Assembly: GCA_030431775.1 (NCBI GenBank)
Contig: JAUIHW010000009.1
Span: 46,525-110,524, forward strand
Length of the DNA stretch: 64,000 nucleotides
Source of the DNA: Gammaproteobacteria bacterium
GTDB taxonomy: Bacteria; Pseudomonadota; Gammaproteobacteria; Pseudomonadales; JAUIET01
Direction of reading: 5' to 3'
Part shown: positions 5,396 through 24,814 of the stretch, piece by piece
Layout of the letters: each line of letters starts with the position of its first letter
How positions within the stretch are numbered: position 1 is the stretch's first letter
The notes under the pieces: generated by a model
What the model saw: only the letters and a program-made list of their open reading frames with translations
Databases searched by the model: none
What the model was told of the DNA's origin: nothing
Translations under genes and position numbers: made by a program

Positions 5396-5398
5396 ACG

Positions 5399-5824: not shown

Positions 5825-5839
5825 GCATCAGCCAGCCTA

Positions 5840-8250: not shown

Positions 8251-8251
8251 A

Positions 8252-9562
8252 TTAGCTCTCAGCCTGTTTGCGGGAGTTTGCCCGCTCTCGCCGCAGCGCC
8301 AACACCTCCACCGCATGGCCGTAGTCCATGCGCCCACCTTTCCAGTACCACTTGCTAGCCGGTACCGCCGGTAATTCAACGTCGGGCGCATTCAATTCAG
8401 GCGCCTCGGGCACTCGCCGCCCATCCGGCCGATGAAACACCAGCTCCCCGCTTGACGCCCGAACCACCGAAAACCCACCCTCATGCACCATCCGGTGATG
8501 ATGCCTGCACAACAGCACCAGGTTCTCAAGGCTGGTTTCCCCGCCTTCTGACCAGTGCTGTATATGGTGCCCGTCCACAAAGCGCGCACTGCAACACCCG
8601 GGAAACCGGCAACCGCCATCGCGCAGCTGTAATGCACGGCGCATTGGAGGCGGAATAGTGCGCGACTTACGCCCGATCGAAACCGGCTCACCATCACGAG
8701 ACACCACATGACTCACACTGGCATCACAACACACGCGCTTTACCGCTTCCTCCGCCAGGGACGGCCCGTCATCCAGGCCATAGCGGGGTAAACCCCTGGA
8801 AACATCGGCATGAATCAACACCTGGTAACGATCAGCCGTCTTGCATGCCTCACCCGAATGCGCAAGCTGGTCCTCCGCCATCATCGCCAGTGCATCAGCG
8901 CGCAACCGCTTTTTCCTGATCGGTAACGTTTCCGCGGAAACGGTTTTGCCCGCTTTCGTTGCTTCCTGCTCCGTCTTCCACTCGTCTTCTTCCAGCCGGG
9001 TAACAGTAAGATCCAAAGCCTTCAGAAAAACAGCACCTTGCTCAGCGCTCAAGGTTGCCTGCACCACCAGCTTACCCTCATCGTCCCAGTAATACTTCAG
9101 CGAACGCTTGTCATGTTCGGCTTGCGCCTTCTCTTTGGTAACGCGCCTGAAATGGCGCACCGTCTTCTCAATATGGCTCGCCGAGCCATGCTCGGCAATC
9201 ATTAGCAAAGTGTCTTCGTTTTCAGAACTGCCGATGCGCGTAATCGCCCGCGCTTTGGAATAACTCAACTGTCCACTGGCAAACGCCGCGGCCACCTTCG
9301 GCAAGCCCGCTAGCGCATGCGCCACGCGAACCTTCTCACGAGCTGCACCCAAAGCAATACCACACTTCCAGTTCAACCAGTGTGCGCACGATTTGCAGCC
9401 CCAGCTTGCCCAGCCGCGCTGATTGTCGAATTCGGCGATTAGCACCAGTAAGCGATAGTTAGCGGCATTAATATTGGCCGCCAGCTGCGTAATCTGTTGT
9501 TCCAGAATTTCGATGCTAGTGGCGTGAGAAGAAGGCGGAGGAAGTTTTACAATGGCGTTCAT
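8252..9562 (-). CDS. DUF222-type HNH endonuclease (13E12-repeat-like family)
   Basis: C-terminal HNH core CRFPGC...HHIQHWSEGGETSLENLVLLCRHHHRMVHEGG. Long helical N-terminal domain as in DUF222 proteins. Confidence 0.85.
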   Translation of the reverse strand: MNAIVKLPPPSSHATSIEILEQQITQLAANINAANYRLLVLIAEFDNQRGWASWGCKSCAHWLNWKCGIALGAAREKVRVAHALAGLPKVAAAFASGQLSYSKARAITRIGSSENEDTLLMIAEHGSASHIEKTVRHFRRVTKEKAQAEHDKRSLKYYWDDEGKLVVQATLSAEQGAVFLKALDLTVTRLEEDEWKTEQEATKAGKTVSAETLPIRKKRLRADALAMMAEDQLAHSGEACKTADRYQVLIHADVSRGLPRYGLDDGPSLAEEAVKRVCCDASVSHVVSRDGEPVSIGRKSRTIPPPMRRALQLRDGGCRFPGCCSARFVDGHHIQHWSEGGETSLENLVLLCRHHHRMVHEGGFSVVRASSGELVFHRPDGRRVPEAPELNAPDVELPAVPASKWYWKGGRMDYGHAVEVLALRRERANSRKQAES

Positions 9563-9595
9563 GGGCTGCTTTCCTTGTCATGGAGAGCGCCATTA

Positions 9596-9615
9596 TACTG
9601 TATATACATACAGCA
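9596..9615 (-). promoter_or_regulatory. LexA (SOS) box overlapping a TATAAT -10 element upstream of the HNH gene
   Basis: Plus strand reads TACTGTATATACATACAGCA, i.e. CTGT-N8-ACAG, 18/20 to the gammaproteobacterial consensus TACTGTATATATATACAGTA. On the gene strand ACAG is followed directly by TATAAT. Lies 34-53 nt upstream of the ATG at 9562. Confidence 0.7.
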
Positions 9616-9646
9616 TTAAAGTTAAAGTATTTTACTTAGAGCAATA

Positions 9647-10120
9647 TTACTCAACACTACCCAGTTCGTTATCCCTTGCAATACGCCGGGCTTCATCTTC
9701 AATGCGAGCACGAAGCTCATCCAGCCTGCTCATAACCCTCTCCTGGCCCATTTCAGTAGTTTGGCGCAGAATAATTGGCTGCGCGGTCATAAGCTTCTGA
9801 CCAACTGGGGATTCATGAAATTCGATCAATTTATGAATCTCTGCTTCTGAAAAATGGTCCATATAAACATATGCATACTCATCACGAAGGCTTTCATAGC
9901 TTAATACTTCAGCGTAGTACTCTCGTAACACCTTGCGATAAGGCAACAATGTAGGATTGTTTTGCAGCTCCAGTTCCGCCATCTGTTCTATTGATTGCTC
10001 AAGAACCTCTTCTGATCGGCTTACCTCAAGCAATTTGTAAGCGGCTTGCATGTGGGAGCTGAGCTCGGCGGAGGCATTGAACGCCAATAAAATAGCTAGA
10101 GTACCGACAAGGTGTCTCAT
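9647..10120 (-). CDS. DUF2059-like secreted protein
   Basis: N-terminal signal peptide. HFSEAEIHKLIEFHESPVGQKL segment typical of DUF2059. Confidence 0.6.
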   Translation of the reverse strand: MRHLVGTLAILLAFNASAELSSHMQAAYKLLEVSRSEEVLEQSIEQMAELELQNNPTLLPYRKVLREYYAEVLSYESLRDEYAYVYMDHFSEAEIHKLIEFHESPVGQKLMTAQPIILRQTTEMGQERVMSRLDELRARIEDEARRIARDNELGSVE

Positions 10121-10402
10121 ATGAATTCCCCTTTAACTGTGCGGCCGTAATGGGTTTACCATATTCACAGCTTAGTTCAGGTTCGGCTACCAACAGCTTA
10201 AAAGTGGTAAGTTACTGCTGAACGGTATAATTAAACCGTTATGACGCGCGCCCTACGATCTGCACCAGGGTATCTACGCGGGCATAATACCTATTCACCC
10301 AGTCTTCCTCTGACGTGAAGCGATAACGTAGAGCTAGCTGCTAAAATCCAGCAAGATCGCTTAAGATAGAGATATCCAAACTGGACAGTACAGCTAGCGA
10401 AA

Positions 10403-10500
10403 CTGGTGACAGTTAACCTAATTATTCAACCCCTAGAGAGCCGCTTTCTCAGCCGACCCACTGGTCAAACAATTCATAAAATGGCACGGAGAAATAGGTA
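10403..10500 (+). repeat. 98-bp direct repeat, copy 1
   Basis: Hand alignment with 11853-11950 gives 93/98 identical positions. Confidence 0.9.
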
Positions 10501-10654
10501 TCTGTCCCCGGAACTCAATAAGTATGCGGTGGCGAACAGCAAAGACGCGGTTGAAATTCGTGATGCCGAACTCAATGAACGTGCGTTGATTCATGTTGCT
10601 AGTAGCCGCGCGATTGAACGATTGATAGTGACTTATCATGGTAAGCCAAGCTAA
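10406..10654 (+). pseudogene. possible remnant of a superfamily-1 helicase C-terminus
   Basis: The ORF tail ...ALIHVASSRAIERLIVTY resembles the terminal LYVAxTRAxxxLxxxY motif of UvrD-like/DUF2075 helicases. The rest of such a gene is absent. The 5' part of the ORF is the repeat itself. Confidence 0.3.
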
Positions 10655-10855
10655 TATCTCGGGGTTTTAGGCTGAAGTTACATTGGCTCACTGCTTAGGG
10701 TGGATAATGGCAATACAACACTGCAGCTGGAAAATTAGTGAACCGCGTTGCCTGGTCGATGAATTCATACAGCCTGACATGAAGTTGTCGGGGGACCACA
10801 AGCGCGCCGCCCAGGATGGGTTGGATGCGGCTGGGAATTGATGTATTCATAAGCG

Positions 10856-11728
10856 ATGAATAGCGAAGAGCAGCAACTACCTCTATTTGATACCGATCCC
10901 GACAGTCAGTTTCCAAGTGCAGAGGAGTTGCCTACTGCAGTCTCAGTAGGCTCTGAATTTAGTAAGTACATCGTGTATGTTGATGAGAGCGGGGATCATG
11001 GCCTAAAAAGCATTGATGAGCACTACCCCGTGTTCGTTCTGGCATTCTGCATTTTTCATAAGCGCCACTACAGTGAGGCCATAGTCCCTGCATTGGAGAA
11101 GTTCAAATTCAATTGGTTTGGTCATGACCAGATAATTTTGCATGAGAACGAAATTCGAAAGGAATCTGGCGCTTTCAATATCTTTAAAAGCAAGGAGGAA
11201 AACCTCGAGTTTCTTGATCAATTGACGGGGATAATAGAGCGAAGCAACTTTGTGCTGGTTAGTTGCACTATTGATAAGCGTGCACTCAGAAATCGGGGAG
11301 AGTCAGGTTCTAACCCGTATCACATAGCGCTTGCTTCTTGCATGGAATCATTGCACGGCTTCCTTGAGGAAAAAAGTCAGGGTGAGAGAAAAACACACGT
11401 AGTGTTCGAATGCCGCGGCAAGAAAGAGGATCAGAAACTTGAGTTGGAATTTCGGCGTATCTGTGATGGCAACAACAGTTTAGGTATCAACCTACCTTTT
11501 GAGATCCAATTCTCCGATAAAAAAGCCATGTCTTCCGGCTTGCAACTGGCGGATCTTGTCGCTCGGCCAATTGGGCTGAGTACGCTGAAACCCGATCAAC
11601 ACAATCGAGCGTTTGAGGTTCTAAAATGCAAATTCTACTGCGAAGGTGGAAGAGAAAGTGTCGGTGAGGGTTACGAGGGAGTGGGCATGAAGATTTACCC
11701 TGCCCCAGAAAGCGAAAAGTCCCGGTGA
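10856..11728 (+). CDS. DUF3800 domain protein
   Basis: YIVYVDESGDHG N-terminal motif and overall pattern typical of DUF3800. Confidence 0.75.
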   Translation: MNSEEQQLPLFDTDPDSQFPSAEELPTAVSVGSEFSKYIVYVDESGDHGLKSIDEHYPVFVLAFCIFHKRHYSEAIVPALEKFKFNWFGHDQIILHENEIRKESGAFNIFKSKEENLEFLDQLTGIIERSNFVLVSCTIDKRALRNRGESGSNPYHIALASCMESLHGFLEEKSQGERKTHVVFECRGKKEDQKLELEFRRICDGNNSLGINLPFEIQFSDKKAMSSGLQLADLVARPIGLSTLKPDQHNRAFEVLKCKFYCEGGRESVGEGYEGVGMKIYPAPESEKSR

Positions 11729-11852
11729 ACCCACCGAGACTATAGCGCCGACCGGGCACCCCCAATCCACTTACCGTACAGTATATATCAAAATGATTCA
11801 CCAGAATGCCATTGGGTCGGCTAGGTTTGTCAACTTTTGTTCATTCTGGAAT

Positions 11853-11950
11853 CTGGGGACAGTTAACTTAATTATTCAACCCCTAGAGAGCTGCTTTCTC
11901 AGCCGACTCACTGGTCAAACAATTCATAAAATAGCACGGAGAAATAGGTA
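11853..11950 (+). repeat. 98-bp direct repeat, copy 2
   Basis: See copy 1. Ends 48 nt upstream of the DUF1993 gene start. Confidence 0.9.
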
Positions 11951-11997
11951 AACTTGTATCCGGAATTCAACCAACCACCAACTAAGGAATCACTTCC

Positions 11998-12576
11998 ATG
12001 GCCAACTCCATGTATAAATCGAGCGTTCAGGTTTACACCCACAACCTGAAGAATTTAGCCGCGATGTTGAAAACCGCTGAGAAAGACGCGAAAGCACGAG
12101 GTATAGACTCGTCGGTCATGGTGAACGCACGGCTCGCGCCGGACATGTTGCCGTTGGTGTCACAGGTGCAGATGGTGAGCGACAACGCCAAGGGCGCTTG
12201 TGCGCGGCTGGCTGGTGTTGAACCACCCGCATTCAAAGACAATGAAACGACCTTTGCCGAGCTGCAAGACCGCATCAAGCGCACGCTGGCGTTTATCCGC
12301 ACATTGAAAGCCAAACAGTTCGAAGGGGCTGAAAGCCGTGAAGTAGTGATGACGCTTCCTGTCGGCAAGCTAACGTTCAACGGCGCTGATTACCTGAATG
12401 GTTTTGCGCTGCCAAACTTTTACTTCCACATTACTACGGCGTACAACATTCTGCGCCACAATGGCGTGGGCCTGGGCAAAATGGATTTTCTTGGCAATGT
12501 GCCTGGCATGCAAGCCAGCGGAAAGTTAGCCAAGATGATGGGCAAGCAGCCTAAGAAGAAAGCAAAGGCAAAATAA
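11998..12576 (+). CDS. DUF1993 (DinB/YfiT-like) protein with Lys-rich tail
   Basis: LAPDMLPL...NFYFHITTAYNILRHNGVGLGKMDFLG is characteristic of DUF1993. Confidence 0.75.
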   Translation: MANSMYKSSVQVYTHNLKNLAAMLKTAEKDAKARGIDSSVMVNARLAPDMLPLVSQVQMVSDNAKGACARLAGVEPPAFKDNETTFAELQDRIKRTLAFIRTLKAKQFEGAESREVVMTLPVGKLTFNGADYLNGFALPNFYFHITTAYNILRHNGVGLGKMDFLGNVPGMQASGKLAKMMGKQPKKKAKAK

Positions 12577-13494: not shown

Positions 13495-14034
13495 CTACCA
13501 CATCAAATCATCGGGAATTTGATAGTCTGCATACGGGTCATCTTCATCCACTTCTTGCGTACCCGCAACATTCTGCAGCAACACAACGCTGTCATCGCGC
13601 TGCTTTATTTTGTCGGCCACCTGCGTGGGCACTAATTCGTAGTTGCCGCCATTTACCACAATCGCGATCTGGCCGTGGCTGAGCTGATTTTGCAGTAGGG
13701 GCGTGACGTACAGTTTTTTGATCTTTTTGCCGTGCGTGAATTGGTAGGCGATGTCGCCGTTCTTGCGGTCAATTCGATTGGTATCGATGAGTTGCTTAAT
13801 CTGCGCGGCTATCGCTTTTTCGTTGGCTGCTTGCTGGCGTTGGCGGTTGGCTTCCTTGTCCCGGGCGATGCGTTCGGCCCTGGCCTCGCGTGCCCGCAGT
13901 TGGGCTTCAGTTTCCTGAGCGGCCTGGCCCTTGGGCTGCTGCCTGGCTTCCTTCCGTTGCTGCTTCTGAATCTGTTTGGCTTTCTTCTCGTCAACCATGC
14001 CGGCCTTGAGAAGTTGGTCTTGTAGTGACTTCAT
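13495..14034 (-). CDS. DUF2058 (YaiL-like) protein
   Basis: MKSLQDQLLKAGMVDEKKAKQ start, Lys/Gln/Arg-rich middle, conserved C-terminal domain. Confidence 0.7.
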   Translation of the reverse strand: MKSLQDQLLKAGMVDEKKAKQIQKQQRKEARQQPKGQAAQETEAQLRAREARAERIARDKEANRQRQQAANEKAIAAQIKQLIDTNRIDRKNGDIAYQFTHGKKIKKLYVTPLLQNQLSHGQIAIVVNGGNYELVPTQVADKIKQRDDSVVLLQNVAGTQEVDEDDPYADYQIPDDLMW

Positions 14035-14050
14035 GGAGTCAGCCGCTAAG

Positions 14051-14063
14051 TGGTGCCAGGGGC
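14051..14063 (+). repeat. candidate distal att repeat of the island
   Basis: TGGTGCCAGGGGC versus TGGTGCCCAGGGGC at 24739-24752 (the tRNA-Phe 3' end); one base is missing. The composition shift starts just to the right. Confidence 0.45.
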
Positions 14064-14337
14064 TCTACCGCATACATAAGCCAAGACATTGTTTTGTTAC
14101 AATAAATTTCCGTCAGGATAAAATAGATGCCATCAGATATACCATCTGCTCACCCAGAACAGGCGTTCATTTTATACCATGCATGGGATGTTCGGGTGCT
14201 CAATATTCTCTGCTAATGCTACAAATTGGGTTGGCGAAGGTATGCAGGCATCGAGGGATCTACCCAGAACCACCAGATGGTGTCATAAGGCTGGCTTTAT
14301 CGTCCAACTCAGTTTCAAGCATCTGTTTTCCTTTCTG

Positions 14338-14925
14338 TTAATTGGCCGATTGATTATATTCACTCGTCTCTTTCTCTTTTTTCTCAGCTTCATCAAGCAA
14401 ACCTTGGTAGATAGTGAAATACTCAGAGGTTTCAAAGCTGTTTTTGTACACATCTTCGTAGACAAGTTGAAGTTTTAGAGGAATGATCGCTCGCCACATG
14501 TCATTGCGGTTATCCTGAAATTCGAGACTCGGTTTTTCGCTAGTTTGAAATAGCAATAGGTCAAATTTTTTGCCTGGTTGAAGCGCAACATTTTTCAAAC
14601 CTTTCTTGTAATCATTCCACTTCATATCGTGTTTAAGTGGGTCAGGCATAAGCTCAATAAGCGACGTTGCTTCTCGAGTAGGATTGGTAGTATCGATAAC
14701 AGTGACTGACTGAACAATCATTGGACCTGCACCCCGATTCTCCAGCTCTACTCCAAATTTGTTCTGATAAGTTAGCCGGTTAACACTATGAATAGGCAAA
14801 AGAGATTTGTGATTGTGTTCTCGCTGTACGCTTAGGGCTTCCCGTGCCTGCCAGATTGCTATGCAGGATACGAGAAGCGCCAACACGGCAACTAGTGCTT
14901 CTGGGTGATTTCTTAGATATTCCAT
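14338..14925 (-). CDS. hypothetical single-pass membrane protein
   Basis: One N-terminal TM helix (ALVAVLALLVSCIAIW) followed by a beta-rich soluble part. I chose the ATG at 14925; the ORF track starts at 14961. Confidence 0.55.
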   Translation of the reverse strand: MEYLRNHPEALVAVLALLVSCIAIWQAREALSVQREHNHKSLLPIHSVNRLTYQNKFGVELENRGAGPMIVQSVTVIDTTNPTREATSLIELMPDPLKHDMKWNDYKKGLKNVALQPGKKFDLLLFQTSEKPSLEFQDNRNDMWRAIIPLKLQLVYEDVYKNSFETSEYFTIYQGLLDEAEKKEKETSEYNQSAN

Positions 14926-14982
14926 CACGTGTATAGATCTCCTGAATTGCAGTACTCCCAATGTAAAATAGGTGCATGCATG

Positions 14983-15600
14983 TTATCCAAACAACCCGGC
15001 GCGTTCAGTGCGAACACCACTTAGGTGGTTCATTTTAATCCAGAGATTTGTTCTTAAGGAGTGATGCTCAGGCTGCACCAACTCTATAAGATAGTCGCAA
15101 AAACTTGCTTCAAGCGCTTTGTGGAATCTGCGCACGTCAAGTGTGTAACCCTCGCGGTCGTCGCTAGATACTTTGCGAAGCATCGTACTTTGATTGCGGC
15201 GAACAAGCCACATATTCTTTGCTTCCGCTTGATGTAACAATCCGCAGCGAATATCTTCATAGAATTTGGTACGAGCTTCCTCATCGAAATCCGGTTGGAA
15301 CTTACTCCCAGTTAAATATGTTGTTACTAGCGCGCGAGATCGTCTAGTTCCATCAGTGCACCCTTCGCGAAATTGCTGAAGCGCCTCTATCAGCAGGCAA
15401 TCAATTGCTAGAACCGTAAACCCTGAATTTTCATCCTCCAAGCATCGCCGGGCAAACTTTAGAAATCGCCCATCAAGTCTATCTTGCACAATATCTACAG
15501 CCCTTCGCCAGTCGGCTTCTGAATCTTCACGCAAATGTCCCCATTGTTCGCAATTGTAGTTCGGCGAAATTCTCAACGGTCCGTCATCATAGTAACCCAC
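14983..15600 (-). CDS. hypothetical protein with RX4H (HEPN-like) motif
   Basis: 205 aa, predicted mostly helical. R118-C-G-L-L-H123 followed by QAE resembles the HEPN RX4-6H signature. No other recognisable domain. Confidence 0.35.
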   Translation of the reverse strand: MGYYDDGPLRISPNYNCEQWGHLREDSEADWRRAVDIVQDRLDGRFLKFARRCLEDENSGFTVLAIDCLLIEALQQFREGCTDGTRRSRALVTTYLTGSKFQPDFDEEARTKFYEDIRCGLLHQAEAKNMWLVRRNQSTMLRKVSSDDREGYTLDVRRFHKALEASFCDYLIELVQPEHHSLRTNLWIKMNHLSGVRTERAGLFG

Positions 15601-15720
15601 AGTATTTCTCCCTCCAATCTGATATTCGTGCCAGCTTGGATAATTATACGTTTGGGCAAATCTATGCGAAATGGTAGAACCGCAAGCCAGTATGGCGGCG
15701 AGAAATGAAATGAATGTTTA

Positions 15721-15766
15721 GATATTTGAAATAGATAACGTTATCGACTTAATGATATTTCAAATG
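15721..15766 (-). promoter_or_regulatory. operator-like palindrome cluster upstream of the 14983-15600 gene
   Basis: Perfect 12-bp palindrome GATAACGTTATC (15734-15745), flanked by GATATTTGAAAT and GATATTTCAAAT. Lies in a 247-bp AT-rich gap. Confidence 0.4.
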
Positions 15767-15847
15767 TAGCTACCAGTGTGACAATATTGCCTTCTCAGAA
15801 AAATGTGTTTCCGCAAAGTGTTGGTTTGGCTGGCGTCTACTATGACG

Positions 15848-16459
15848 TCATACCTTCAGGACTTTATTTACTCTTTCTGGTGAGTTTCCAGATAGCCGCG
15901 CAATTTGCTTGCAAATGCGCTCCAAACGATTTTTGTGTTTCGATTTTTTCTTTCTATATTGAACAGCACTTTCCACAAGTACGAATAGCAGATGCCTCTG
16001 CGCTTCACGATATCGCAAGGCCTCATCGTTATTAAGTCTCAGCAATTCAACGGCAAGCAAACCCATTGAGCTACGAGACTTGATAAAGTGTGAATCAAAA
16101 ACTAGATGCTCAGACATATTAGTATCACATGGGTTAGGCACCTGCTTACTCGGGCTGTCTGACCAATAATTCTTTTTGAATCTATTGCAGCTAGCGCACG
16201 AGTAGAATAAATTGGTGTAGCGGCTTTCCAATTCAGGAAATAAGGATTTTGGCCGGTAATGCTCCACATGAAAGGAGCTTGTATCTTGATCGAGGTCATG
16301 CGCTCTACAGTACACACAGTGGTTCGCAAACTCTGCTTTAAGGTAAGGCTTGTATTTTCGGTAGTCGTTGTAGCTTGGGGGAGTTAACGTTCTCTTGTGA
16401 ATTGCTGTGGGGTACTTAAAAGGGTCTATTTTTGAAAAGCACTTCCACTCTGCGCTCAT
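15848..16459 (-). CDS. HNH endonuclease (TIGR02646-like, CX2C...H-N-H...CX2C)
   Basis: CVYC ... FHVEHYRPKS ... YTNLFYSCASCNRFK. Start is 4 nt after the upstream stop. Confidence 0.75.
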   Translation of the reverse strand: MSAEWKCFSKIDPFKYPTAIHKRTLTPPSYNDYRKYKPYLKAEFANHCVYCRAHDLDQDTSSFHVEHYRPKSLFPELESRYTNLFYSCASCNRFKKNYWSDSPSKQVPNPCDTNMSEHLVFDSHFIKSRSSMGLLAVELLRLNNDEALRYREAQRHLLFVLVESAVQYRKKKSKHKNRLERICKQIARLSGNSPERVNKVLKV

Positions 16460-16462
16460 TGA

Positions 16463-16882
16463 TCACTTTTCCGGCTGCTCTAAAAGCTCATTGACTAACT
16501 CATAAGATTCTTTCAATAGACTCCAATGATCTTCAGAGTATCGAAAATATTTCAAGTCAGCTATTTGATTTAGAATCTGGAGGCGAGCGTCATCCTCGCG
16601 GTTTAGCTCAAGACTGTCTGTAGCATACTTTTTGGCAATAAGAGCGATTCTGTCGCTAAGGTCTTGGTCAGTTTCCAGCTCGATATCCACAGAACGATCG
16701 AAGTAGTTTGAGCCCAAAGATATTTGCGGGCTCCAATCCATTGCGTCTTCGTCATACAAAGATACTGTTGCATCGCTTCGATATGAACCAACTATGCTTG
16801 TAGAACTTACAGCTGGCCACCACTCGCTTCTGCCAGAAATAAAAGGCGAATCTTCTAAATACTCAGCTATTTGCAACGCCAC
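16463..16882 (-). CDS. small acidic hypothetical protein
   Basis: 139 aa, rich in Asp/Glu, no recognisable motif. Its start overlaps the upstream gene by 20 nt. Confidence 0.55.
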   Translation of the reverse strand: MALQIAEYLEDSPFISGRSEWWPAVSSTSIVGSYRSDATVSLYDEDAMDWSPQISLGSNYFDRSVDIELETDQDLSDRIALIAKKYATDSLELNREDDARLQILNQIADLKYFRYSEDHWSLLKESYELVNELLEQPEK

Positions 16883-17636
16883 TTCTCAATGCCTCCTTTG
16901 CTTTCTCGCCTAATGACCACCAAAAAAAGGGAAAATGAAGCTTGTGATAGTCATCTAACAAATCTATACAAGCATCAGCTTCAACATCTTCATTAAAATA
17001 GTCATAATCCAGAATAAAGTGCCTACTTTTCACTTCAGGTGGTGCTAAACCATATCTAAAACCGTACCTCCCCCCGCATTCAAGAGGCCCGGTAATCTCA
17101 TTCTTCATGGTGAAAACAGACCCGATCTCCGTTCCAATCGGACGAACCAAATCACTGTTGATCCAGTCGGCAAGGTCATTGCCGTCTGCACTTATGTCTT
17201 TGATATTGTTAATGAAGCGAAGTCCAATGCGGGTGAAAAATGGTGCTTTAAGGCTAGGGATACAATTATCAAGCACGTACTTAAAGTTATTCAAAAAATT
17301 CTCGAAAGACTGGTAGTCATGTGTGGAAAGCACAACCCGTGAGGATGTAACTTCTATCTTGAAATTATTTTGTCGATTGGAAAAAGAGAAAACTGCCTCC
17401 GGTTCAGTTACGCCTGCTGGAGTAACTTGGCGAGTTTCACCTGCTTCATATCTGGGGAAGTCTTTACGCAATTTGTCGGAGATTTCCGGTATTGCTGTTT
17501 CTTTCAAGTGCAGGTAGGTTGGATAGCGTATCTCGACAATGACCTGGTCGAGGTAGTTCTTATCAAATACCTCGCGGGGCACTTCAGGAAACTGAAAATA
17601 CTGGTTGGAGTTGACGGGTTTTCTCATCTCGCTCAT
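16863..17636 (-). CDS. TIGR04255-like uncharacterised protein
   Basis: YLDQVIVEIRYP near the N-terminus and a central RIGLRFINNI segment recall the TIGR04255 family. I chose the ATG at 17636; the ORF track starts at 17687. Confidence 0.5.
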   Translation of the reverse strand: MSEMRKPVNSNQYFQFPEVPREVFDKNYLDQVIVEIRYPTYLHLKETAIPEISDKLRKDFPRYEAGETRQVTPAGVTEPEAVFSFSNRQNNFKIEVTSSRVVLSTHDYQSFENFLNNFKYVLDNCIPSLKAPFFTRIGLRFINNIKDISADGNDLADWINSDLVRPIGTEIGSVFTMKNEITGPLECGGRYGFRYGLAPPEVKSRHFILDYDYFNEDVEADACIDLLDDYHKLHFPFFWWSLGEKAKEALRSGVANS

Positions 17637-17872
17637 CAGTGAGTTGCCAGATTGTATCTGGAAGCTTGAATAAGCATTTCTATGCAAGGATATCAGGATA
17701 GCATACCTAGCGATTCTTGTTGGTGATTAGAGGCGCGTTGTATCGGTAAGCCGCCAGCGCGATAATCTAAATATTGCTACCAAAAACGATTATATTTCAG
17801 CTACTTATGATCTGCACAAATGAGAAGCGTAAAGACTGACGGGTACTTTCTCATAAACTTGGCACATTACTT

Positions 17873-18220
17873 TCACCCTCTCAGGTTGTAGTAGGGACCT
17901 AGAAACCAATATTCAGCACCGCCCTTGGCCGTTCCAGACCGGCTTCTATCCAGGATGCCCATCGTCTTATCCGTGGCCCAGCCGAGCTTCTGAACGGTAC
18001 CCATGGAGCCCTTGCCAAGCACCCTATAGGCCGAGCTGGTCCCTTCATGGCTGGCGTCTTGGAACGCGCTTTCTAGATGATTGGTCGTTGTCACGATCTC
18101 TTGCAAGATCTCCTGTAGGGCCACCATTTCTGCCGGCGTACAGGTTCGTGGTGTGCTGCTCATGATTCCCCCTCCATTCCGGCCAGCATTGGCGCGTTGT
18201 CGGGTAAAGAATTTATTCAT
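17873..18220 (-). CDS. hypothetical protein
   Basis: ORF only. Co-oriented with the island core. No motif recognised. Confidence 0.35.
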   Translation of the reverse strand: MNKFFTRQRANAGRNGGGIMSSTPRTCTPAEMVALQEILQEIVTTTNHLESAFQDASHEGTSSAYRVLGKGSMGTVQKLGWATDKTMGILDRSRSGTAKGGAEYWFLGPYYNLRG

Positions 18221-18310
18221 CGTTCAGTCCGCAATCGTGGTAAGCAAGCAATCTGTTTCATGGTTAAAGCAATAGATATGCAATGACTCCTCGCCTGTAA
18301 ATCGCTTGTA

Positions 18311-18544
18311 TTAACAGAGAATTTTGTACAAATTTTCATCGATCTCAATAAGTGCCTGTTGTTGTCGTCTGAGCACCCTGGACAGTTCTGATAGTTGCTC
18401 ACGTTGTCCACCTTTGTACGCGTTCTGTGAGACAGTCTTCTTGCCCTGCTCAGTCTTGGGCCCGGTGCTGGACAGCCATGGCTTCCATTGCTGAATCGCC
18501 TCTCGCTGCCTCTCCCGGCGCTCCAAAGTCCAACCGTTCGCCAT
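18311..18544 (-). CDS. hypothetical island-core protein (NGWT..ERR..W.PW..STGPKT..GK...NA.KGG pattern)
   Basis: The pattern resembles small conserved proteins of integrative elements. I chose the ATG at 18544. Confidence 0.45.
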   Translation of the reverse strand: MANGWTLERRERQREAIQQWKPWLSSTGPKTEQGKKTVSQNAYKGGQREQLSELSRVLRRQQQALIEIDENLYKILC

Positions 18545-19055
18545 GTTGTTCCTCCAAAACTTTGTTTTGCTCATTTTCGATATCTTTCACGCGCGCGTCT
18601 TGCCCCCCGTTGTTTACCTGCTGATGTCCCCGGGCCACATTCTGTTGCCGCACAAACGTGGCGCCACGTGGATTTTTAATGTCCGAGATCGTCTGCAGAG
18701 TGGTTCGGCATTGGTTCTGCGCTCTCAAAGCAGTTTTCATAAACAACTCGAGTTGATAACCCGACACACCTTGGGCAGTTGCTCTCTGTACCAGTTTATT
18801 GAACAACGCGTCGAGCGTATGTGCCTGACAGATCAGCATCGCTTCCGCGTTGTTCATATCATTATTGTTGACGGCCTCTACTTGCTCGCGTAGCACTTCC
18901 GTTAGCCCCTCGACAAACAGAGATTTATTCTTATGAACCGCTGTCAATGTATGGTTGGCTTGAACGGCCGCGTCTACTTGGGCACGCGCTGCTAAGCCGG
19001 GCCATTCGAAGTTCTCTGGGACTTCAATATCCTCTAGCTCATCATCATCCGTCAT
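18450..19055 (-). CDS. hypothetical island-core protein
   Basis: 201 aa. Acidic N-terminus, helical centre, tail EEQHGERLDFG. Its stop region overlaps the next gene by about 95 nt. Confidence 0.5.
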   Translation of the reverse strand: MTDDDELEDIEVPENFEWPGLAARAQVDAAVQANHTLTAVHKNKSLFVEGLTEVLREQVEAVNNNDMNNAEAMLICQAHTLDALFNKLVQRATAQGVSGYQLELFMKTALRAQNQCRTTLQTISDIKNPRGATFVRQQNVARGHQQVNNGGQDARVKDIENEQNKVLEEQHGERLDFGAPGEAARGDSAMEAMAVQHRAQD

Positions 19056-19927
19056 CCTATCGATCCTAGTTCTTGTAATACGCCTTGGCGCAAATCCTGT
19101 TCTGCTTCCAATACCGTTTGATAGGTCGGCCAGTCGATACGAGCGGTGATCGCCTCCTCAACCAGCTGTAAAAGAATGTCCGGTGGTAACGCCTCACACT
19201 GAACGGTAGCGTCATCATCGAAGCGGCGCCGGTCTGTTTTCTTCGGGGGTGCGGTTGGCAGGTCGAATTGTTCCCGCTGCTCAGGTGTTACAGCCAATCG
19301 AGTAAACTCAACCTGGCCATCAAACCCCACCGTAAATGCCGCGATGTCTTCATGCAGTGAGCTGAACATGTGCACCCCCGATGGGTCGTAATCTCCCAGA
19401 TGCAACACCTCACAGTGGCCCAGGCTCGCCAGCTCTCTTGCGATCCTTTGCTTGGTCGTCAGTGAGTCAAAGCCACCACTAGAGACCACTGGGACACCGT
19501 ATTCCAGGCAAACGCTCTCCAACATAGGTTGCATGCCACGGGCTTCACACCACGCCATCAAGCGCTTGTGCTGACCTGCTTGCCTATCCATTCGCACGGA
19601 CTGAGCATGGCGCTGGTATCGGGTCAGCACATCGTCAACATCGGTGAAACAGTCCAATTCTGACTCATAGAAACCATCGTCACGAATGTGTTCCATTTGG
19701 ATCAGCTTGGCGCGTCTCGCGAGATTGGTGACATCACACAGTCGCTTGTAGCCTTTCTCGGTCTTCTCGATCTCCTGTTTCACGACTAGTCGGTAAAATA
19801 TTTGCCGCAACGTCAACGGGAGTTGTTGTCGGTACTCTGCCAACACCGCGCTGATAGCCGCCACCATATCCCTGGTCTTTGGTTGCGGGTTCCAATCGGT
19901 TATAAATCCGCGTGGCCTTGTGCTCAT
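19052..19927 (-). CDS. Spo11/topoisomerase VI-A-like (Mini-A-type) winged-helix + Toprim protein
   Basis: LTLRQIFYRLV matches the catalytic-Tyr context of Spo11/TopoVI-A (..RDIFY..). HLGDYDPSGVHMF is a Toprim DxD motif. No B subunit is nearby. Confidence 0.55.
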   Translation of the reverse strand: MSTRPRGFITDWNPQPKTRDMVAAISAVLAEYRQQLPLTLRQIFYRLVVKQEIEKTEKGYKRLCDVTNLARRAKLIQMEHIRDDGFYESELDCFTDVDDVLTRYQRHAQSVRMDRQAGQHKRLMAWCEARGMQPMLESVCLEYGVPVVSSGGFDSLTTKQRIARELASLGHCEVLHLGDYDPSGVHMFSSLHEDIAAFTVGFDGQVEFTRLAVTPEQREQFDLPTAPPKKTDRRRFDDDATVQCEALPPDILLQLVEEAITARIDWPTYQTVLEAEQDLRQGVLQELGSIG

Positions 19928-19975
19928 CTCTCGCTACTCAATTTATCATCAGGGTATGGTTATATATAAGACTCA

Positions 19976-20101
19976 CCAATATGGAATTACAAAAAGGGCG
20001 AAAATCGCGAGTTACTACCCCTATATGGAATAGGTAGAGCCAAAATCAGTGATTTGTAATTCCATATTGGGATAGGTAAGCCAATACCTATTCCTATATG
20101 G
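19976..20101. repeat. iteron-like repeat cluster / candidate island origin
   Basis: Perfect 18-bp inverted repeat CCAATATGGAATTACAAA (19976-19993) / TTTGTAATTCCATATTGG (20053-20070). Four ATATGG-type motifs and three ATAGGTA motifs, with an AT-rich tract just upstream. Confidence 0.55.
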
Positions 20102-20128
20102 TCATGGAAAAATCGAAATGTAAACTGG

Positions 20129-20557
20129 TTACGCTGCATTTGTTATCACTCGAAGCTTGGGTTTGACCGGTTTCTCGGGTGGTTTGCACCACAAGTTCAA
20201 TGGGGTTGAACTGGGCTTGACGCCGACATCGTATTCAATATTGGTCTCATCGATTCCATGCCACGTGACCGCCACCAAAGTAGGTTTTCCTCTCTGTTTC
20301 CAGCCCTGGCGTGTAACGACGATGAAACCTTTTTTCAGCAAGCCTGCCTTAGCTCTCCAAAGCGATGTGCTGGACCAACCATGTTTTTCAAGGAGAGTGA
20401 TAGTTGGTGACAATGTTCCGTTATTGCGGCCGTTGAACTGGTATAGAAGATCGACCAGCAGTTTCACTTCTGGGCCAGTGAGCGTAGCATACTGCTCGGT
20501 GCGAATAACACTGAATGGTATGCCGGCGAATCGAGCTTTTGATTTTCGCGGCATCAC
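20129..20557 (-). CDS. winged-helix DNA-binding protein (replication-initiator-like)
   Basis: 142 aa. The pattern IPFSVIRTEQYATLTGPEVKLLVDLL...GWSSTSLWRAKAGLLKKGFIV is typical of wHTH proteins in integrative elements. Adjacent to the iterons. Confidence 0.45.
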   Translation of the reverse strand: MMPRKSKARFAGIPFSVIRTEQYATLTGPEVKLLVDLLYQFNGRNNGTLSPTITLLEKHGWSSTSLWRAKAGLLKKGFIVVTRQGWKQRGKPTLVAVTWHGIDETNIEYDVGVKPSSTPLNLWCKPPEKPVKPKLRVITNAA

Positions 20558-20859
20558 GCAACCCTGCGAAGTGCTCGCTCAAGCTCATGCAAGTACTGCC
20601 TGCTACCGTCCTCGCGTTCACATTGGTAAACTCTTTGAAGAATGCCGACATCAGGCTCATAGCACGCGCAAATAAGCTTCGGAGGTTTCAGCCGTCCGCT
20701 GTAGTGGCTTTGCCGTAGGACGCCGTGAAGGCCAGCACAGATGCGACGGGAGCCGTTTTCATATTCAGCCAAAACCTTATGCAGCTTGTGCAGTGAGCGA
20801 CTCGACCATGCTGATGCTGATCTGAGAGGCTTTTTGATTTTGCGAGTAAAATTGCCCAT
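20554..20859 (-). CDS. hypothetical protein
   Basis: ORF with a 4-nt overlap to the downstream gene. No motif recognised. Confidence 0.4.
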   Translation of the reverse strand: MGNFTRKIKKPLRSASAWSSRSLHKLHKVLAEYENGSRRICAGLHGVLRQSHYSGRLKPPKLICACYEPDVGILQRVYQCEREDGSRQYLHELERALRRVA

Positions 20860-20933
20860 GCAAATGTTCTCCGATATTTGTGAATTGATAAAACGGCATC
20901 TTCAGCTTTGGTGCGCGGGATGCCGTTTTTCGT

Positions 20934-21242
20934 TCAGGCGGCCTTTTTCTCTGCCCACTTACCTTTGGTTAGGACATACTGCGCGCATCTGTGCTTGTTC
21001 CGCTGCGCGTCTTCATCTACCGTCCAAAGCAGCTGGATGTTAAAACCAAAATTGTGGCGTAGTTCGTGCACCCTGGCGGCTGGCATCATGACATCCAGTC
21101 GTTCGCGCGCCTGGATTGTAGTCACACCTTTTCCTCCTGCTTCGCGCAGTGCTTTTAATAATCTTTGGCGCTGGGCTTGGGTTGAAGTAGGATAGAGCCG
21201 CGATTGAGAGCCGCCTTCCGGGGCGTTTTTTTCGTTTTTCAT
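20934..21242 (-). CDS. helix-turn-helix (HTH_39-like) protein
   Basis: TTIQARERLDVMMPAARVHELRHNFGFNI is typical of this HTH family. I chose the ATG at 21242, just after the alpA stop. Confidence 0.5.
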   Translation of the reverse strand: MKNEKNAPEGGSQSRLYPTSTQAQRQRLLKALREAGGKGVTTIQARERLDVMMPAARVHELRHNFGFNIQLLWTVDEDAQRNKHRCAQYVLTKGKWAEKKAA

Positions 21243-21252
21243 CAGTGCCTCC

Positions 21253-21447
21253 TCATGCAGCTTCGCTAGCAGATTTGGCAATGCGTTCGGATATCCATTG
21301 ATCAACAGCGCGCTCATCCCATCCGCTGGCATGCCGGGTCAACTTGATCTGCCTGGGGAATTTACCCTCTGATATCAAGCGATATATAAGACTTTGGCTT
21401 AGGCCGGTGCGAGATTTGACATCGCGCATGCGTAGTATCTTCTTCAT
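21253..21447 (-). CDS. alpA: AlpA-family transcriptional regulator / excisionase-like
   Basis: 64 aa. ILRMRDVKSRTGLSQSLIYRLISEGKFP is the classic AlpA/MerR-like HTH. Confidence 0.8.
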   Translation of the reverse strand: MKKILRMRDVKSRTGLSQSLIYRLISEGKFPRQIKLTRHASGWDERAVDQWISERIAKSASEAA

Positions 21448-21556
21448 GTTCCATCCTGCTTGTGTATTGCCATAGCCGGAATGCTGTGGCCCGCAGGATC
21501 TAAATATATAGAGGTGTGGAGTGCTTTATCACTAGGTCACCCATGGGGTGTCTTAG

Positions 21557-22330
21557 TCAGAGGTAATTTGAATTGTATTCATTCGCATCGTAGTCGATCA
21601 GCGCTGCATTGAGGCTGTCTTCCACTTCTTGCTTAGTTTCCGGATCAGCAATAAAGTGAGTAGCTTCAATTTCCTCTGAAATAAGCCATGCGTTTTCTTT
21701 ATCGATAAGATTCTTGGTACTTCTCGAGCGCGTTGGCGTAAAGGTAGAACAAAACTCCAATACACCTTTGGCGGCAGCCAATAACTCATTACGGTATTCA
21801 TTTAGAATGCCTACGACGGCTTCGGGACGAAGGTCAGTCTCTGCCGCCAACGAAGGCGGCATCAACCTTAGAGCAGCCCATATATGAGATACAGAACGAT
21901 ATGAATTAAGACATTCACGAATTTTAGGTTTGCTTGTGTTTAGTTTTTTGCCGTCAGGGTGACTTCTACCCTCGGCAAATTTCTTGCTCACATGTAAGGC
22001 TTTATTTAGACTTGGTTCATGGAACCCTATCTGGTTCATCAGGTACATTAAAGCAATTAGATCACCGGCAATTACAGCTTTTTGCACATTCTTGATGGCA
22101 GTTTCCTTCATGCGCTCTATCGGCGGTGCATTGATTAAGAAGTGAAGGTCATTCTTACTAATTGCATACTTCTCTTCTTCTTTTAACGCGTACTGAACGA
22201 AGTCAGCACAGTGCAGCTCAAACCACTGTTCTCTTTCTTGGGCTTTCTCAGGGAAGGCCATGATTGATAGTAAACGTAAAGTATCAGTCGCATCTCCATC
22301 AAGTACAATGCAACGAGTCTCTTTCGCCAT
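21557..22330 (-). CDS. hypothetical helical protein (partner of the CHAT-like gene)
   Basis: 257 aa. No motif recognised. Co-oriented, 116 nt downstream of the CHAT-like gene. Confidence 0.5.
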   Translation of the reverse strand: MAKETRCIVLDGDATDTLRLLSIMAFPEKAQEREQWFELHCADFVQYALKEEEKYAISKNDLHFLINAPPIERMKETAIKNVQKAVIAGDLIALMYLMNQIGFHEPSLNKALHVSKKFAEGRSHPDGKKLNTSKPKIRECLNSYRSVSHIWAALRLMPPSLAAETDLRPEAVVGILNEYRNELLAAAKGVLEFCSTFTPTRSRSTKNLIDKENAWLISEEIEATHFIADPETKQEVEDSLNAALIDYDANEYNSNYL

Positions 22331-22446
22331 AAATGCACCCCTGCATACCCAAGAAGGAACCAGGCCAGGGCAGTGGGTAGCTGCCTTTTCGCGCCGTCGC
22401 GCTAGGCCTGGGGCTTATAGTTTAGCGCCAAATATAGGTTAGTCAT

Positions 22447-23310
22447 TCATCCGCTGATACTAATCTTCAGCACTTCATCCTCAGCCTTTTCGTATGTAAC
22501 ATTGAATACTTCCTGATTCTCTGGGTATATGTCATACATAAAAAAGGTGTCGCGCGCCTTTTCAAAGGTTTTGAGGTTGGTGTCAAGAATTTGCTGCTGA
22601 ATATTCTCCAAACTATCTGGTTCAATATCTAGGTTGGTTCTTGATATCTGTATATCGCGAGCTCTTGACTCTAGCCTTTCAGGAGAGCACTGAATTAGCC
22701 GATAGTTTGCCCAAACGTTGTAGAAAAATATCTCAGCGGTTGTGGCGAAATAGGAGCTTTTTTTAACGTTAGCATTGAGAGCCTCAATGGGGGACAGTTT
22801 CCTGGTCTCGTCAAAAAATGCATCGTAAAAAGCTTTAAATCCGTCTAGTACTGCACCGACATCAATGCTACCTGTTGGGCCAATTAGGCCCCATACTGGC
22901 GCTGGGTCGCCAAGTCGAATTGAGTTAGCAAAGCTACCTCCATAACAGGAAGCAAACATCACCATTAGATTCAATCCGGAAGACACGTTTAATGGTGTTA
23001 GCAGTTCTTTCAATTGCGTCCAGGAGCAAAACTCCTGTTGTGCAATGATGAGACCTTTTTCGTCTGCGGTTCCGTGTGCCTCAAAATGTAGAGAAGGTAG
23101 AAATTCTGAAGATTTCGTTCGCTCATCTAATGCAGATAGCGTATGAATTAAGTCTTCATTGGTTTCTATTCTGAAGATTTCGACTTCGAGCAACTCCGAG
23201 CGATAAGTAGCGATGTCGGTTAGTGCTTGCAAGAGGTTTCTTGAGCTGTAACGCTGGTCTTCGGGGAGACAGTCAAGAATCACTATAGTATTGAACTTTC
23301 CAGTAGCCAT
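22447..23310 (-). CDS. caspase/CHAT-like (clan CD-like) putative protease
   Basis: LHFEAHG (His79-Gly80) and MVMFASCYGG (Cys122), spaced 43 aa apart, each following predicted beta strands as in the caspase-haemoglobinase fold. About 120-aa helical C-terminal extension. Confidence 0.45.
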   Translation of the reverse strand: MATGKFNTIVILDCLPEDQRYSSRNLLQALTDIATYRSELLEVEIFRIETNEDLIHTLSALDERTKSSEFLPSLHFEAHGTADEKGLIIAQQEFCSWTQLKELLTPLNVSSGLNLMVMFASCYGGSFANSIRLGDPAPVWGLIGPTGSIDVGAVLDGFKAFYDAFFDETRKLSPIEALNANVKKSSYFATTAEIFFYNVWANYRLIQCSPERLESRARDIQISRTNLDIEPDSLENIQQQILDTNLKTFEKARDTFFMYDIYPENQEVFNVTYEKAEDEVLKISISG

Positions 23311-23322
23311 TTTTGCGCCTAC

Positions 23323-24561
23323 CTATAAACTAATCTCACCCTTAGGTTCTAGTATGATGACATTATCTGACTTGGCCAATCCCCGTAGATTGTCCAAGTA
23401 ATCAGCCCATTTCTGCATCATCTCTATTCGTTCAGGCAGATGCTTAGTCCGGTTATATGCACGCCCAAGAGGGTCTCGAACATCGTGTGCCAGCTGGTGT
23501 TCAATAATGTGAGGCGGGAACCCGAGCTGCTCATCAAGCAGAGTTCTGGCCATTGCTCTGAAACCATGGGCTGTCATTTCTTCCTTAGCGATCCCCATTC
23601 GACGCAGAGCTGCATTTAGTGCGTTCTCGCTCATCGCACGTTTTTTGGATCGTTCGCTAGGGAACACATATTGCCAGCGGCCAGAGAGCTCATGTTGATC
23701 CTGCAGAATTTCAATTGCTTGATTGGATAACGGCACAATGTGCGCCTGCTTCATCTTCATTTTCTCGGCCGGCAGTCGCCATTGTCGCTCTTCGAAATCG
23801 ACTTCCGACCACTCCATATACCGAAGTTCACCAGGTCGTACAAAGACCAACGGAGCAAGCAGCAGCGCGTTTCTCACGGTCGCTGTGCCGGAATAGCCAT
23901 CGATCATCGTCAATAGCTTACCTACGTCAGCAGGCTCTGTAATGGCCGCATAGTGGACGGTCTGAGGCGTTTGCAGCGCCCCCTTAAGGTCAGCACTTGG
24001 GTCACGTTCACAACGGCCGGTGGCGACGGCGTACCTGAATATCTGGCCCGCTACCTGTTTTACACGCCTGGTCGTCTCCAGGGCGCCGCGGCTTTCAGTC
24101 TTGCGGAGTGCAGCCAATAGGGTAGGGGGCGTAATCTCGCTGATTGGATGTCGGCCTATGTACGGGAAGAGGTTTTTCTCAAGGAGCCAATACTGTTTCT
24201 TCGCATGGGCAGGCGACCAACTATCCTGCTCTTTGGCGAGCCACTCTCGGCCTATCGCCTCAAAGCTATTCTCTGCCGCATCCTTTCTGGCATCTCGCAT
24301 TGATCGTTTTAGAGTCGATGGGTCGACGTTGTTTCGGATCAGCTTCCTGGCTTCGTCGCGCTCGTCTCTGGCTTCCCTGAGACTGATCTCTGGGTACACA
24401 CCGAGAGCAAGGGTCTTCTGTTTATCACCCCAACGATAGTTCATTCGCCAGTACTTGCCCCCGTTCTTCTTAACCAGCAAGTACAGCGACTTCTCATCGC
24501 TGGCTTTGTAGTCTTTATCTTTGGGTTTGAAATTCTCGATCTGCTTAACAGTAAGTGCCAT
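23323..24561 (-). CDS. int: P4/CP4-57-type tyrosine integrase
   Basis: N-terminal ALTVKQIENFKPKDKDYKASD...YWRMNYRWGDKQKTLALGVYPEISLREAR (DUF4102-type arm-binding domain). C-terminal AHGFRAMARTLL ... HQLAH ... YNR catalytic region. ATG at 24561. Confidence 0.9.
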   Translation of the reverse strand: MALTVKQIENFKPKDKDYKASDEKSLYLLVKKNGGKYWRMNYRWGDKQKTLALGVYPEISLREARDERDEARKLIRNNVDPSTLKRSMRDARKDAAENSFEAIGREWLAKEQDSWSPAHAKKQYWLLEKNLFPYIGRHPISEITPPTLLAALRKTESRGALETTRRVKQVAGQIFRYAVATGRCERDPSADLKGALQTPQTVHYAAITEPADVGKLLTMIDGYSGTATVRNALLLAPLVFVRPGELRYMEWSEVDFEERQWRLPAEKMKMKQAHIVPLSNQAIEILQDQHELSGRWQYVFPSERSKKRAMSENALNAALRRMGIAKEEMTAHGFRAMARTLLDEQLGFPPHIIEHQLAHDVRDPLGRAYNRTKHLPERIEMMQKWADYLDNLRGLAKSDNVIILEPKGEISL

Positions 24562-24738
24562 CGTTTTGTCCCGTTTGATGGTACATGGGTTGTGGTACCA
24601 GCAAGATACCCTCATTGGTACCATCAAATACCATGGATGTGATGGTACCGCTATGGACGGGTATGGACAATAGGGGGTGAAAAAAGCCTTAATTTACAGG
24701 GCTTTCTGGACGTCTATGGAAGTTGGTGGACTTGTTGA

Positions 24739-24814
24739 TGGTGCCCAGGGGCGGAATCGAACCACCGACACGAGGATTTTCAATCCACTGCTCTACCGAC
24801 TGAGCTACCTGGGC
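24739..24814 (-). tRNA. tRNA-Phe (anticodon GAA)
   Basis: The reverse complement reads GCCCAGGTAGCTCAGTCGGTAGAGCAGTGGATTGAAAATCCTCGTGTCGGTGGTTCGATTCCGCCCCTGGGCACCA. It has a 7-bp acceptor stem, T-loop TTCGATT and anticodon loop TTGAAAA, and is close to E. coli tRNA-Phe. Confidence 0.92.

Follow-up and report, generated by a model that had tools for sequence, protein, structure and literature searches.

A predicted caspase-like protease gene carried alone by mobile elements lies between an integrase gene and an int-alpA RNA in a gammaproteobacterial tRNA-Phe island

The DNA analyzed here (the window) is a stretch of 64,000 nucleotides from a Gammaproteobacteria bacterium (assembly GCA_030431775.1, contig JAUIHW010000009.1, positions 46,525 to 110,524), and all coordinates below are window positions unless a locus is named. 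It contains an island integrated at a tRNA-Phe gene. The subject of this study is geneA, a gene of this island whose product is predicted to be a clan CD (caspase/CHAT-like) cysteine protease, together with the neighboring gene geneB and the structured RNA that separates the two. On the minus strand, the order is tRNA-Phe, int, geneA, a 116-nt spacer (22331-22446), geneB and alpA, with 12 nt between the int stop codon and the geneA ATG. An initial annotation, made from the sequence alone, had given the coordinates of the two open reading frames (ORFs), the His79 and Cys122 motifs of geneA, their 43-residue spacing and the 116-nt gap, and all of these were confirmed. The features of the region are the following.

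24739..24814, minus strand: tRNA-Phe (GAA), integration site of the island (ARAGORN; Rfam tRNA, 67 bits)
23323..24561, minus strand: int, P4-type tyrosine integrase, 412 amino acids from the ATG at 24561 (Arm-DNA-bind_3, Phage_int_M and Phage_integrase; Pfam)
22447..23310, minus strand: geneA, clan CD (caspase/CHAT-like) cysteine protease as judged by predicted fold, 287 amino acids, member of phrog_38219
22741..23298, minus strand: caspase-like alpha/beta core of geneA, about residues 5-190 (AlphaFold2 model)
23074-23076 and 22945-22947, minus strand: codons of the catalytic-position residues His79 and Cys122 of geneA, respectively (sequence)
22450..22737, minus strand: C-terminal helical domain of geneA, about residues 192-287 (AlphaFold2 model, profile coverage)
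22347..22412, minus strand: int-alpA RNA (Rfam RF02996), a three-way structured RNA (cmscan)
21557..22330, minus strand: geneB, 257-amino-acid helical protein of a very rare family (ORF, codon model)
21532-21503, minus strand: promoter-like site upstream of alpA (promoter scan)
21253..21447, minus strand: alpA, excisionase/regulator-type helix-turn-helix protein (PF05930, E 8.5e-18)

The geneA product carries the motifs LHFEAHG (His79-Gly80) and MVMFASCYGG (Cys122), 43 residues apart. An AlphaFold model built from a 16-sequence alignment reached a predicted local distance difference test (pLDDT) score of 87.2 and a predicted template modeling score of 0.82. The model comprised six strands alternating with helices; strand 72-77 preceded His79-Gly80 and strand 116-120 preceded Cys122-x-Gly124, these being strands 3 and 4, respectively. 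Helices extended from residue 151 to residue 286, of which those from 192 to 286 formed a C-terminal domain. A Foldseek search of this model against the PDB, a check that the initial annotation had named, returned caspase-6, CED-3, caspase-8, caspase-3/-7, caspase-1/-4/-11 and one C11 protease. Almost all of the 50 matches listed were caspases, with a probability of 1.00, E values from 4e-4 and template modeling (TM) scores of 0.4-0.58; sequence identity to the solved caspases was 10-16%. A structure search of BFVD found viral caspase and metacaspase proteins as well as one uncharacterized Myoviridae protein, which was the best match. In the model, the dyad thus occupies the canonical positions of clan CD (caspases, metacaspases, legumain/C11), with His-Gly after strand 3 and Cys-x-Gly after strand 4, and the caspase/CHAT-like reading that the initial annotation had proposed for the 287-residue protein was borne out at the level of the predicted fold. 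The geneA core differs from known clan CD members in being minimal and in carrying another kind of helical domain at the C terminus, for which we propose a regulatory or sensor role.

The first homologue search recovered 15 relatives with 36-46% identity, and His79 and Cys122 were invariant among the 16 close homologues. In an alignment of 130 homologues (21-45% identity to geneA), these two residues were the sole invariant columns, conserved in 130/130 sequences; His75, Gly80, Gly86, Trp97, Asn108, Gly124 and Pro138 were near-invariant. With Gly80 and Gly124 among them, the HG and CxG contexts are as in caspases. Conserved positions of the C-terminal domain were F196, Y203, R216, F257, D260, R268 and F269. 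A profile search of 1.84 billion representative sequences gave 2,972 clusters (50% identity) at E ≤ 1e-3 and 706 at E ≤ 1e-30, and the family can therefore not be called rare. Of the 150 matches listed, nearly all were 265-300 amino acids long and aligned over their full length; because of these full-length matches at near-constant size, we take the two-domain architecture to be fixed across the family.

All 130 family members matched phrog_38219, a PHROG of "unknown function," and one of them is labeled "CHAT domain-containing protein" in UniRef. The Pfam gathering thresholds for CHAT (PF12770), Peptidase_C13 (PF01650) and Peptidase_C14 (PF00656) were reached by none of the 130 relatives. Below these thresholds, Peptidase_C13 was matched by 31/130 members (best 2.1e-5), CHAT by 12/130 (best 3.2e-3) and C14 by 1/130, all of them families of clan CD. 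Sequence and profile searches of the PDB gave noise only (P450-like, POT1 and uL18 proteins). By its modeled fold and dyad geneA belongs to clan CD, by score to no curated family. Peptidase_C13, the most common subthreshold match, is a family that includes transamidases, and geneA could accordingly be a caspase-fold protein that is not a protease, either a transpeptidase or ligase, as are some C13 members, or a noncatalytic scaffold. The absolute conservation of His79 and Cys122 in 130 divergent sequences, with HG and CxG around them, argues for catalysis, as a scaffold would not be expected to retain both, and we consider the nonprotease explanation very unlikely.

Genomes, metagenomes and plasmids yielded 51 loci with a geneA homologue, whose contexts formed 38 nonredundant groups. 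The sequences 3′ of the stop codon were alike between unrelated loci, and a canonical attC repeat (TAAC ... CACCGGAC ... GCCGGTGA ... GTTRGG) occurred twelve times between successive same-strand ORFs of one locus (L011). An attC covariance model was trained on 13 attC sites, and its matches were almost all on the gene strand. The 3′ end of the geneA homologue overlapped an attC site in at least 12 context groups. The attC match started six bases before the end of the stop codon in ten loci (L002, L010, L011, L013, L027, L034, L036, L037, L040 and L042), with the stop codon lying within the TAAC box in one register, a constant arrangement that points to an old cassette in which gene and attC descend as a unit. 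In four loci (L002, L003, L011 and L013), attC sites were found on both flanks, and the geneA homologue was the sole gene of the cassette. Since they travel in single-gene cassettes, geneA homologues must work without a dedicated neighbor. In L016, a tyrosine recombinase gene on the other strand lies upstream of the homologue, at a distance of about 700 nt.

Integron cassettes are documented reservoirs of small defense systems, with close homologues outside integrons (bioRxiv 10.1101/2024.07.02.601719). The geneA homologues are likewise small promoterless cassettes with a 3′ attC that occur in arrays, whereas geneA of the window differs in that no attC was detected at it; the best match in the island (13.4 bits) lay elsewhere. 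A CTAAC five bases past the geneA stop codon was considered as a trace of an attC and was rejected, as it had no partner box and was not significant.

The 116-nt spacer between geneA and geneB is not empty but contains an int-alpA RNA on the same strand as int and alpA. This RNA matched positions 1-71 of the 71-position model with 52.4 bits (gathering threshold, 35.8; E 3e-9); it starts 34 nt past the geneA stop codon, and 16 nt separate its end from the geneB ATG. The folding energy of the spacer showed no difference from that of shuffled sequences (z = 0.02). Using a pattern scan of IMG/VR with a stem filter, we obtained 87 int-alpA RNA loci, in which the motif occurred in 45 sequence variants and its outer stem covaried, and 15/15 loci tested against Rfam scored above gathering. 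The RNA usually began 2-34 nt downstream of a large same-strand ORF, where an integrase was confirmed only in some loci. A jackhmmer search seeded with the window int found integrase-to-RNA gaps of 6, 14, 264-266, 507, 551 or 623 nt elsewhere; in the window the gap measures 910 nt because geneA lies between. An ORF of at least 100 amino acids started within 120 nt past the RNA in 64 loci, and these ORFs represented 27 unrelated families. The same RNA variant preceded different proteins in different elements. Because the RNA follows the upstream ORF so closely and the ORFs after it are so varied, the order of the backbone is int, RNA, variable cargo and finally alpA followed by the remainder. 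Of the two cargo slots, the common one, after the RNA, contains geneB, and the less common one, between int and the RNA, contains geneA. While the RNA directly follows the upstream ORF in most loci elsewhere, geneA appears to have been inserted between the integrase gene and the RNA in this island. The U-rich tail of the RNA may mean that it ends the int transcript.

The RNA was abundant in IMG/VR (L062, L124, L061, L131, L167, L118, L094, L100, L113, L078, L081, L148, L137, L104 and L102). Other Rfam elements were seen in these loci, namely, a group II intron soon after the cargo gene (L131, 4588-6380), a tmRNA gene used as integration site (L078, 1-218) and C4 antisense and isrK RNAs (L062, 11435-11620).

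The initial annotation had placed geneA and geneB in an int-alpA hotspot known from P4-like satellites. A variable integrase-proximal cargo region is indeed present; however, the published defense hotspot of P4 satellites lies between psu and int and not between int and alpA (PMC9122126). Both regions share integrase-proximal variable cargo, a P4-type integrase and a tRNA gene. The hotspot of P4 is bounded by psu, whereas the variable slots described here flank the int-alpA RNA instead. The integrase architecture is shared with P4-like satellites, but Pfam and PHROG scans of 19 island proteins gave no match to the P4 morphogenesis and replication families (psu, sid, delta and the alpha primase-helicase).

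The same annotation had taken the 257-residue geneB product for a helical partner of the protease. geneB codes in its own frame according to a codon model trained on the other genes of the island, and a single-sequence AlphaFold prediction was all-helical; the helical description holds for the prediction, which is of low confidence (pLDDT 37.6). Comparison with Pfam, PADLOC and NCBIfam gave nothing usable, the first homologue search found no homologue, and tblastn against plasmids found no match. A profile search of 5.8 billion proteins returned three clusters, including geneB itself. One clear homologue was found (L081, 12413-13093; 226 amino acids, 28% identity over the full length, E 1e-8). 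It lies 30 nt past an int-alpA RNA, in the same slot as geneB of the window, and that RNA is preceded by a 312-residue protein ending in HSFRY...GHER...HYLR, which we read as a putative tyrosine-recombinase signature. No geneA-family gene was detected in this locus (L081/L176) with the A3 hidden Markov model, even with all filters off, and none was present in the other 86 int-alpA RNA loci of IMG/VR.

These data bear on the possibility that geneA and geneB form a two-gene system, with the helical protein as a protease-activated effector, sensor or inhibitor. The two genes are adjacent on the same strand, and no terminator was predicted on the minus strand from int to alpA. They also have the same G+C content (0.43) and nearly the same G+C content at third codon positions (GC3; 0.42 for geneA and 0.41 for geneB), in which they differ from int and alpA (G+C, 0.52 and 0.50, respectively). 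Furthermore, a same-strand ORF followed the geneA homologue within 400 nt in about 20/51 loci. On the other hand, a convergent gene lay directly downstream in about 10 context groups, and no geneB-like neighbor was found beside the geneA homologue in the other 37 nonredundant contexts. An all-against-all BLASTP comparison of 365 neighboring proteins within 5 kb identified no neighbor family in more than 2/38 contexts. Four downstream neighbors showed about 20% identity in a forced alignment and were not homologous, and a DUF6988/DUF5677 protein following the homologue in L004 had no similarity to geneB. In addition, geneA homologues stand alone between two attC sites in the four loci described above, the geneB homologue follows a putative tyrosine recombinase and an int-alpA RNA, and in the window the backbone RNA, whose downstream slot is so variable, separates the two genes. 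Therefore, the proposed partnership did not hold, and no linkage of the two genes was seen in the other contexts collected. Since the geneB homologue occurs without geneA and the other RNA loci lack geneA, we regard the genes as independent and a two-gene system as decidedly unlikely. geneB is a separate cargo gene, unrelated to geneA.

An arrangement resembling that of the window was found in the L045 island (5986-9102), which comprises a tRNA-Ser gene, a P4-type integrase (44% identical to the window int), a 180-amino-acid gene and a geneA homologue. The homologue has 33% identity and lies on the opposite strand, with attC-like matches upstream of it. Taken together, geneA is an autonomous gene whose relatives move as integron cassettes, prophage morons, plasmid genes and integrase-proximal cargo.

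To characterize the neighborhoods, we scanned 149 proteins within 2.5 kb of geneA homologues, from 37 nonredundant loci, with PADLOC. The scan identified Drt5 (3e-219), PDC-S05 (4e-149), a CBASS cyclase (3e-146), a type I methyltransferase (6e-127), ShosA (1e-72), PDC-M34A, MADS components, AriA (two proteins) and type IV restriction enzymes of the mREase_IV type (two proteins). Single loci contained AIPR, NERD, an OLD-like ATPase with BrnT and, on a Ralstonia plasmid, a restriction endonuclease. A PDB comparison of the defense neighbors yielded only an OMPLA-like phospholipase (L035). A frameshift interrupts the geneA homologue of L018 (10001-10844), probably making it a pseudogene, and a 494-amino-acid reverse-transcriptase-like gene (10951-12435) follows it after 107 nt; this second gene is presumably the source of the Drt5 match.

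A precedent for a single-gene protease of this kind is Borvo, a CHAT protease system that is toxic when a phage trigger gene is coexpressed (bioRxiv 10.1101/2024.10.26.620412). Borvo (BovA) and geneA are both single genes with a clan CD/CHAT-type cysteine protease as the presumed effector, found in defense and mobile contexts, and 4/130 geneA family members weakly matched BovA (best 2.2e-5). They differ in that geneA of the window had no match to the BovA model, similarity elsewhere in the family was marginal, and the geneA family is compact (about 280 amino acids) with a helical domain of its own. Given the defense-rich neighborhoods, the weak BovA matches, the Borvo precedent and the defense cassettes of integrons, we favor an abortive-infection protease. 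geneA would then be a self-contained, single-gene, mobile clan CD protease, most likely with a Borvo-like anti-phage function, a reading in which we place moderate confidence. The protease would be held latent, its helical domain would sense infection or mediate activation upon it, and the active enzyme would cleave host or phage proteins.

Several observations weigh against this reading. The TM scores to caspases were moderate, and the placement of the dyad was read from the strand order of the model. geneA itself had no match in Pfam (E ≤ 1), NCBIfam or PADLOC. The defense-neighbor count is a raw count without a matched background control, PADLOC models also match nondefense paralogues, and only 4/130 members show the BovA similarity, which is weak. 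Several geneA homologues adjoin housekeeping genes, and integron cassettes carry many nondefense functions. The shared G+C content would fit a common origin of geneA and geneB. Finally, distant members lie near plasmid replication genes, a location that also fits a role benefiting the mobile element.

The last point leads to an explanation in which geneA benefits the mobile element or counters defense by cleaving host immunity, repressor or competitor proteins. geneA relatives were found on plasmids, including Klebsiella IncFIB plasmids of about 110 kb, where the gene lies near repB, a 153-kb Yersinia plasmid and a Ralstonia plasmid, as well as in the early region of a Mu-like prophage, after gemA and with AIPR. 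The family has its own PHROG, its best BFVD match is from a myovirus, and geneA of the window probably lies in the int transcription unit, all of which would suit such a role. However, tblastn found no geneA match in 50,697 GenBank phage records, and no relative of the close geneA subfamily was confirmed in IMG/VR. Moreover, many copies are chromosomal cassettes or lie beside host defense genes, which is the pattern of defense cargo rather than that of early anti-defense genes of phages. We therefore judge a function in favor of the mobile element to be unlikely and retain the abortive-infection protease as the preferred reading. The distant Klebsiella members (L020, K. pneumoniae pKP35_2, 4971-5858, and 15 other Klebsiella plasmids) have about 26% identity over the catalytic half and are annotated as "hypothetical" or, probably wrongly, as "HMG-box domain-containing protein."

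Because of the 12-nt gap after int and the lack of a predicted terminator before the int-alpA RNA, geneA is probably cotranscribed with int and would ride on its transcription unit. AlpA-type regulators activate int in CP4-57-type elements. The same spacing and this mode of regulation could also point to an island-regulatory protease tied to excision, e.g., one that processes a repressor or recombination factor when AlpA activates int. A regulator dedicated to its element should be found together with it, but geneA was found in 0/86 other int-alpA RNA loci, and most of its relatives lie away from integrase or alpA genes, many of them in unrelated cassette arrays. Of the alternatives to an anti-phage protease, regulation of excision appears to us the least probable.

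Catalytic domains of the same kind serve prokaryotic immunity in the TPR-CHAT/Csx29 protein of the type III-E Craspase, in SAVED-CHAT proteins and in gasdermin-associated proteases. These are large, multidomain proteins genetically linked to defined partners or substrates, whereas no conserved linkage was found for geneA.

The island extends from the tRNA gene to about 14050 and spans about 10.7 kb. At its distal boundary, the G+C content drops from about 0.57 to 0.42-0.53, coinciding with the following feature.

14051..14063, strand not assigned: probable distal att remnant (TGGTGCC-AGGGGC), weak and tentative, by comparison with the tRNA 3′ end TGGTGCCCAGGGGC at 24739-24752

This remnant is a 13/14 match to the tRNA 3′ end with one deletion; a complete att direct repeat of that end was looked for, allowing up to 3 mismatches, and was not found. 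A public assembly (run ERR3428547) contains a separate contig of 10,822 bp (L055) that is 100% identical to window positions 13944-24765. It begins within the 3′ half of tRNA-Phe and ends within a DUF2058 gene, and the att remnant sits 107-119 nt inward of its distal end (window position 13944). We place the boundary at about 14050, tentatively, on account of the G+C drop, the identical contig and the degenerate tRNA 3′ copy. The existence of a separate contig may reflect a branch of the assembly graph, with the island being polymorphic in that sample. The mechanical ORF of int extends to 24627, and the ATG at 24561 agrees with the gene call on this contig.

Other parts of the window showed further features. 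A second cargo block of low G+C content (0.42-0.47) occupies the distal end of the island (14338-17687, minus strand). It holds a TIGR04255-family protein (16863-17687, E 1.4e-32), an HNH endonuclease (15848-16459), a 139-amino-acid ORF and two ORFs of 205 and 207 amino acids without a family match, and it may be another defense-type module. A 291-amino-acid island protein (19052-19927, minus strand) matched phrog_6247 ("DNA topoisomerase," E 3e-40) and, weakly, the Toprim-type JetD_C/DUF2399 domain of Wadjet JetD. Primase, helicase and capsid genes were not seen in the island. A separate patch of low G+C content, at about 9000-12000, contains a 102-nt direct repeat of 94% identity (10399-10500 and 11849-11950) flanking a DUF3800 gene (10856-11728); this repeat-flanked patch looks like a small inserted element.

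The fold and the dyad of geneA are of a known kind, and Borvo provides a precedent; what is new is a family below the Pfam, NCBIfam and PADLOC thresholds, with its own helical domain and a life in cassettes. Literature searches on single-gene caspase/CHAT systems and word searches of two preprints on integron-borne defense gave no description of it. A broader view of the family is possible, although we hold it to be doubtful: phrog_38219 might represent a new and very widespread immune protease of a single polypeptide, a minimal "prokaryotic caspase" with a directly infection-sensing helical domain that spreads as a one-gene cassette and, in int-alpA elements, is wired into the int unit and expressed on induction by a helper phage.

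With the int-alpA RNA as a marker, the two variable cargo slots of elements with an integrase and alpA could be mined for new systems. Likewise, integron arrays hold a conserved geneA-family cassette with its stop codon built into attC. If the geneA family is active and self-sufficient as a caspase-like defense protease, it would rank among the smallest protease-based immune modules known and, with about 3,000 clusters at 50% identity, among the more abundant candidates for such modules. Its broad taxonomic spread would then argue for a universal trigger or substrate. At a size of about 280 amino acids, the family would offer a tractable model for asking how a caspase-fold enzyme stays latent and is switched on without a partner.

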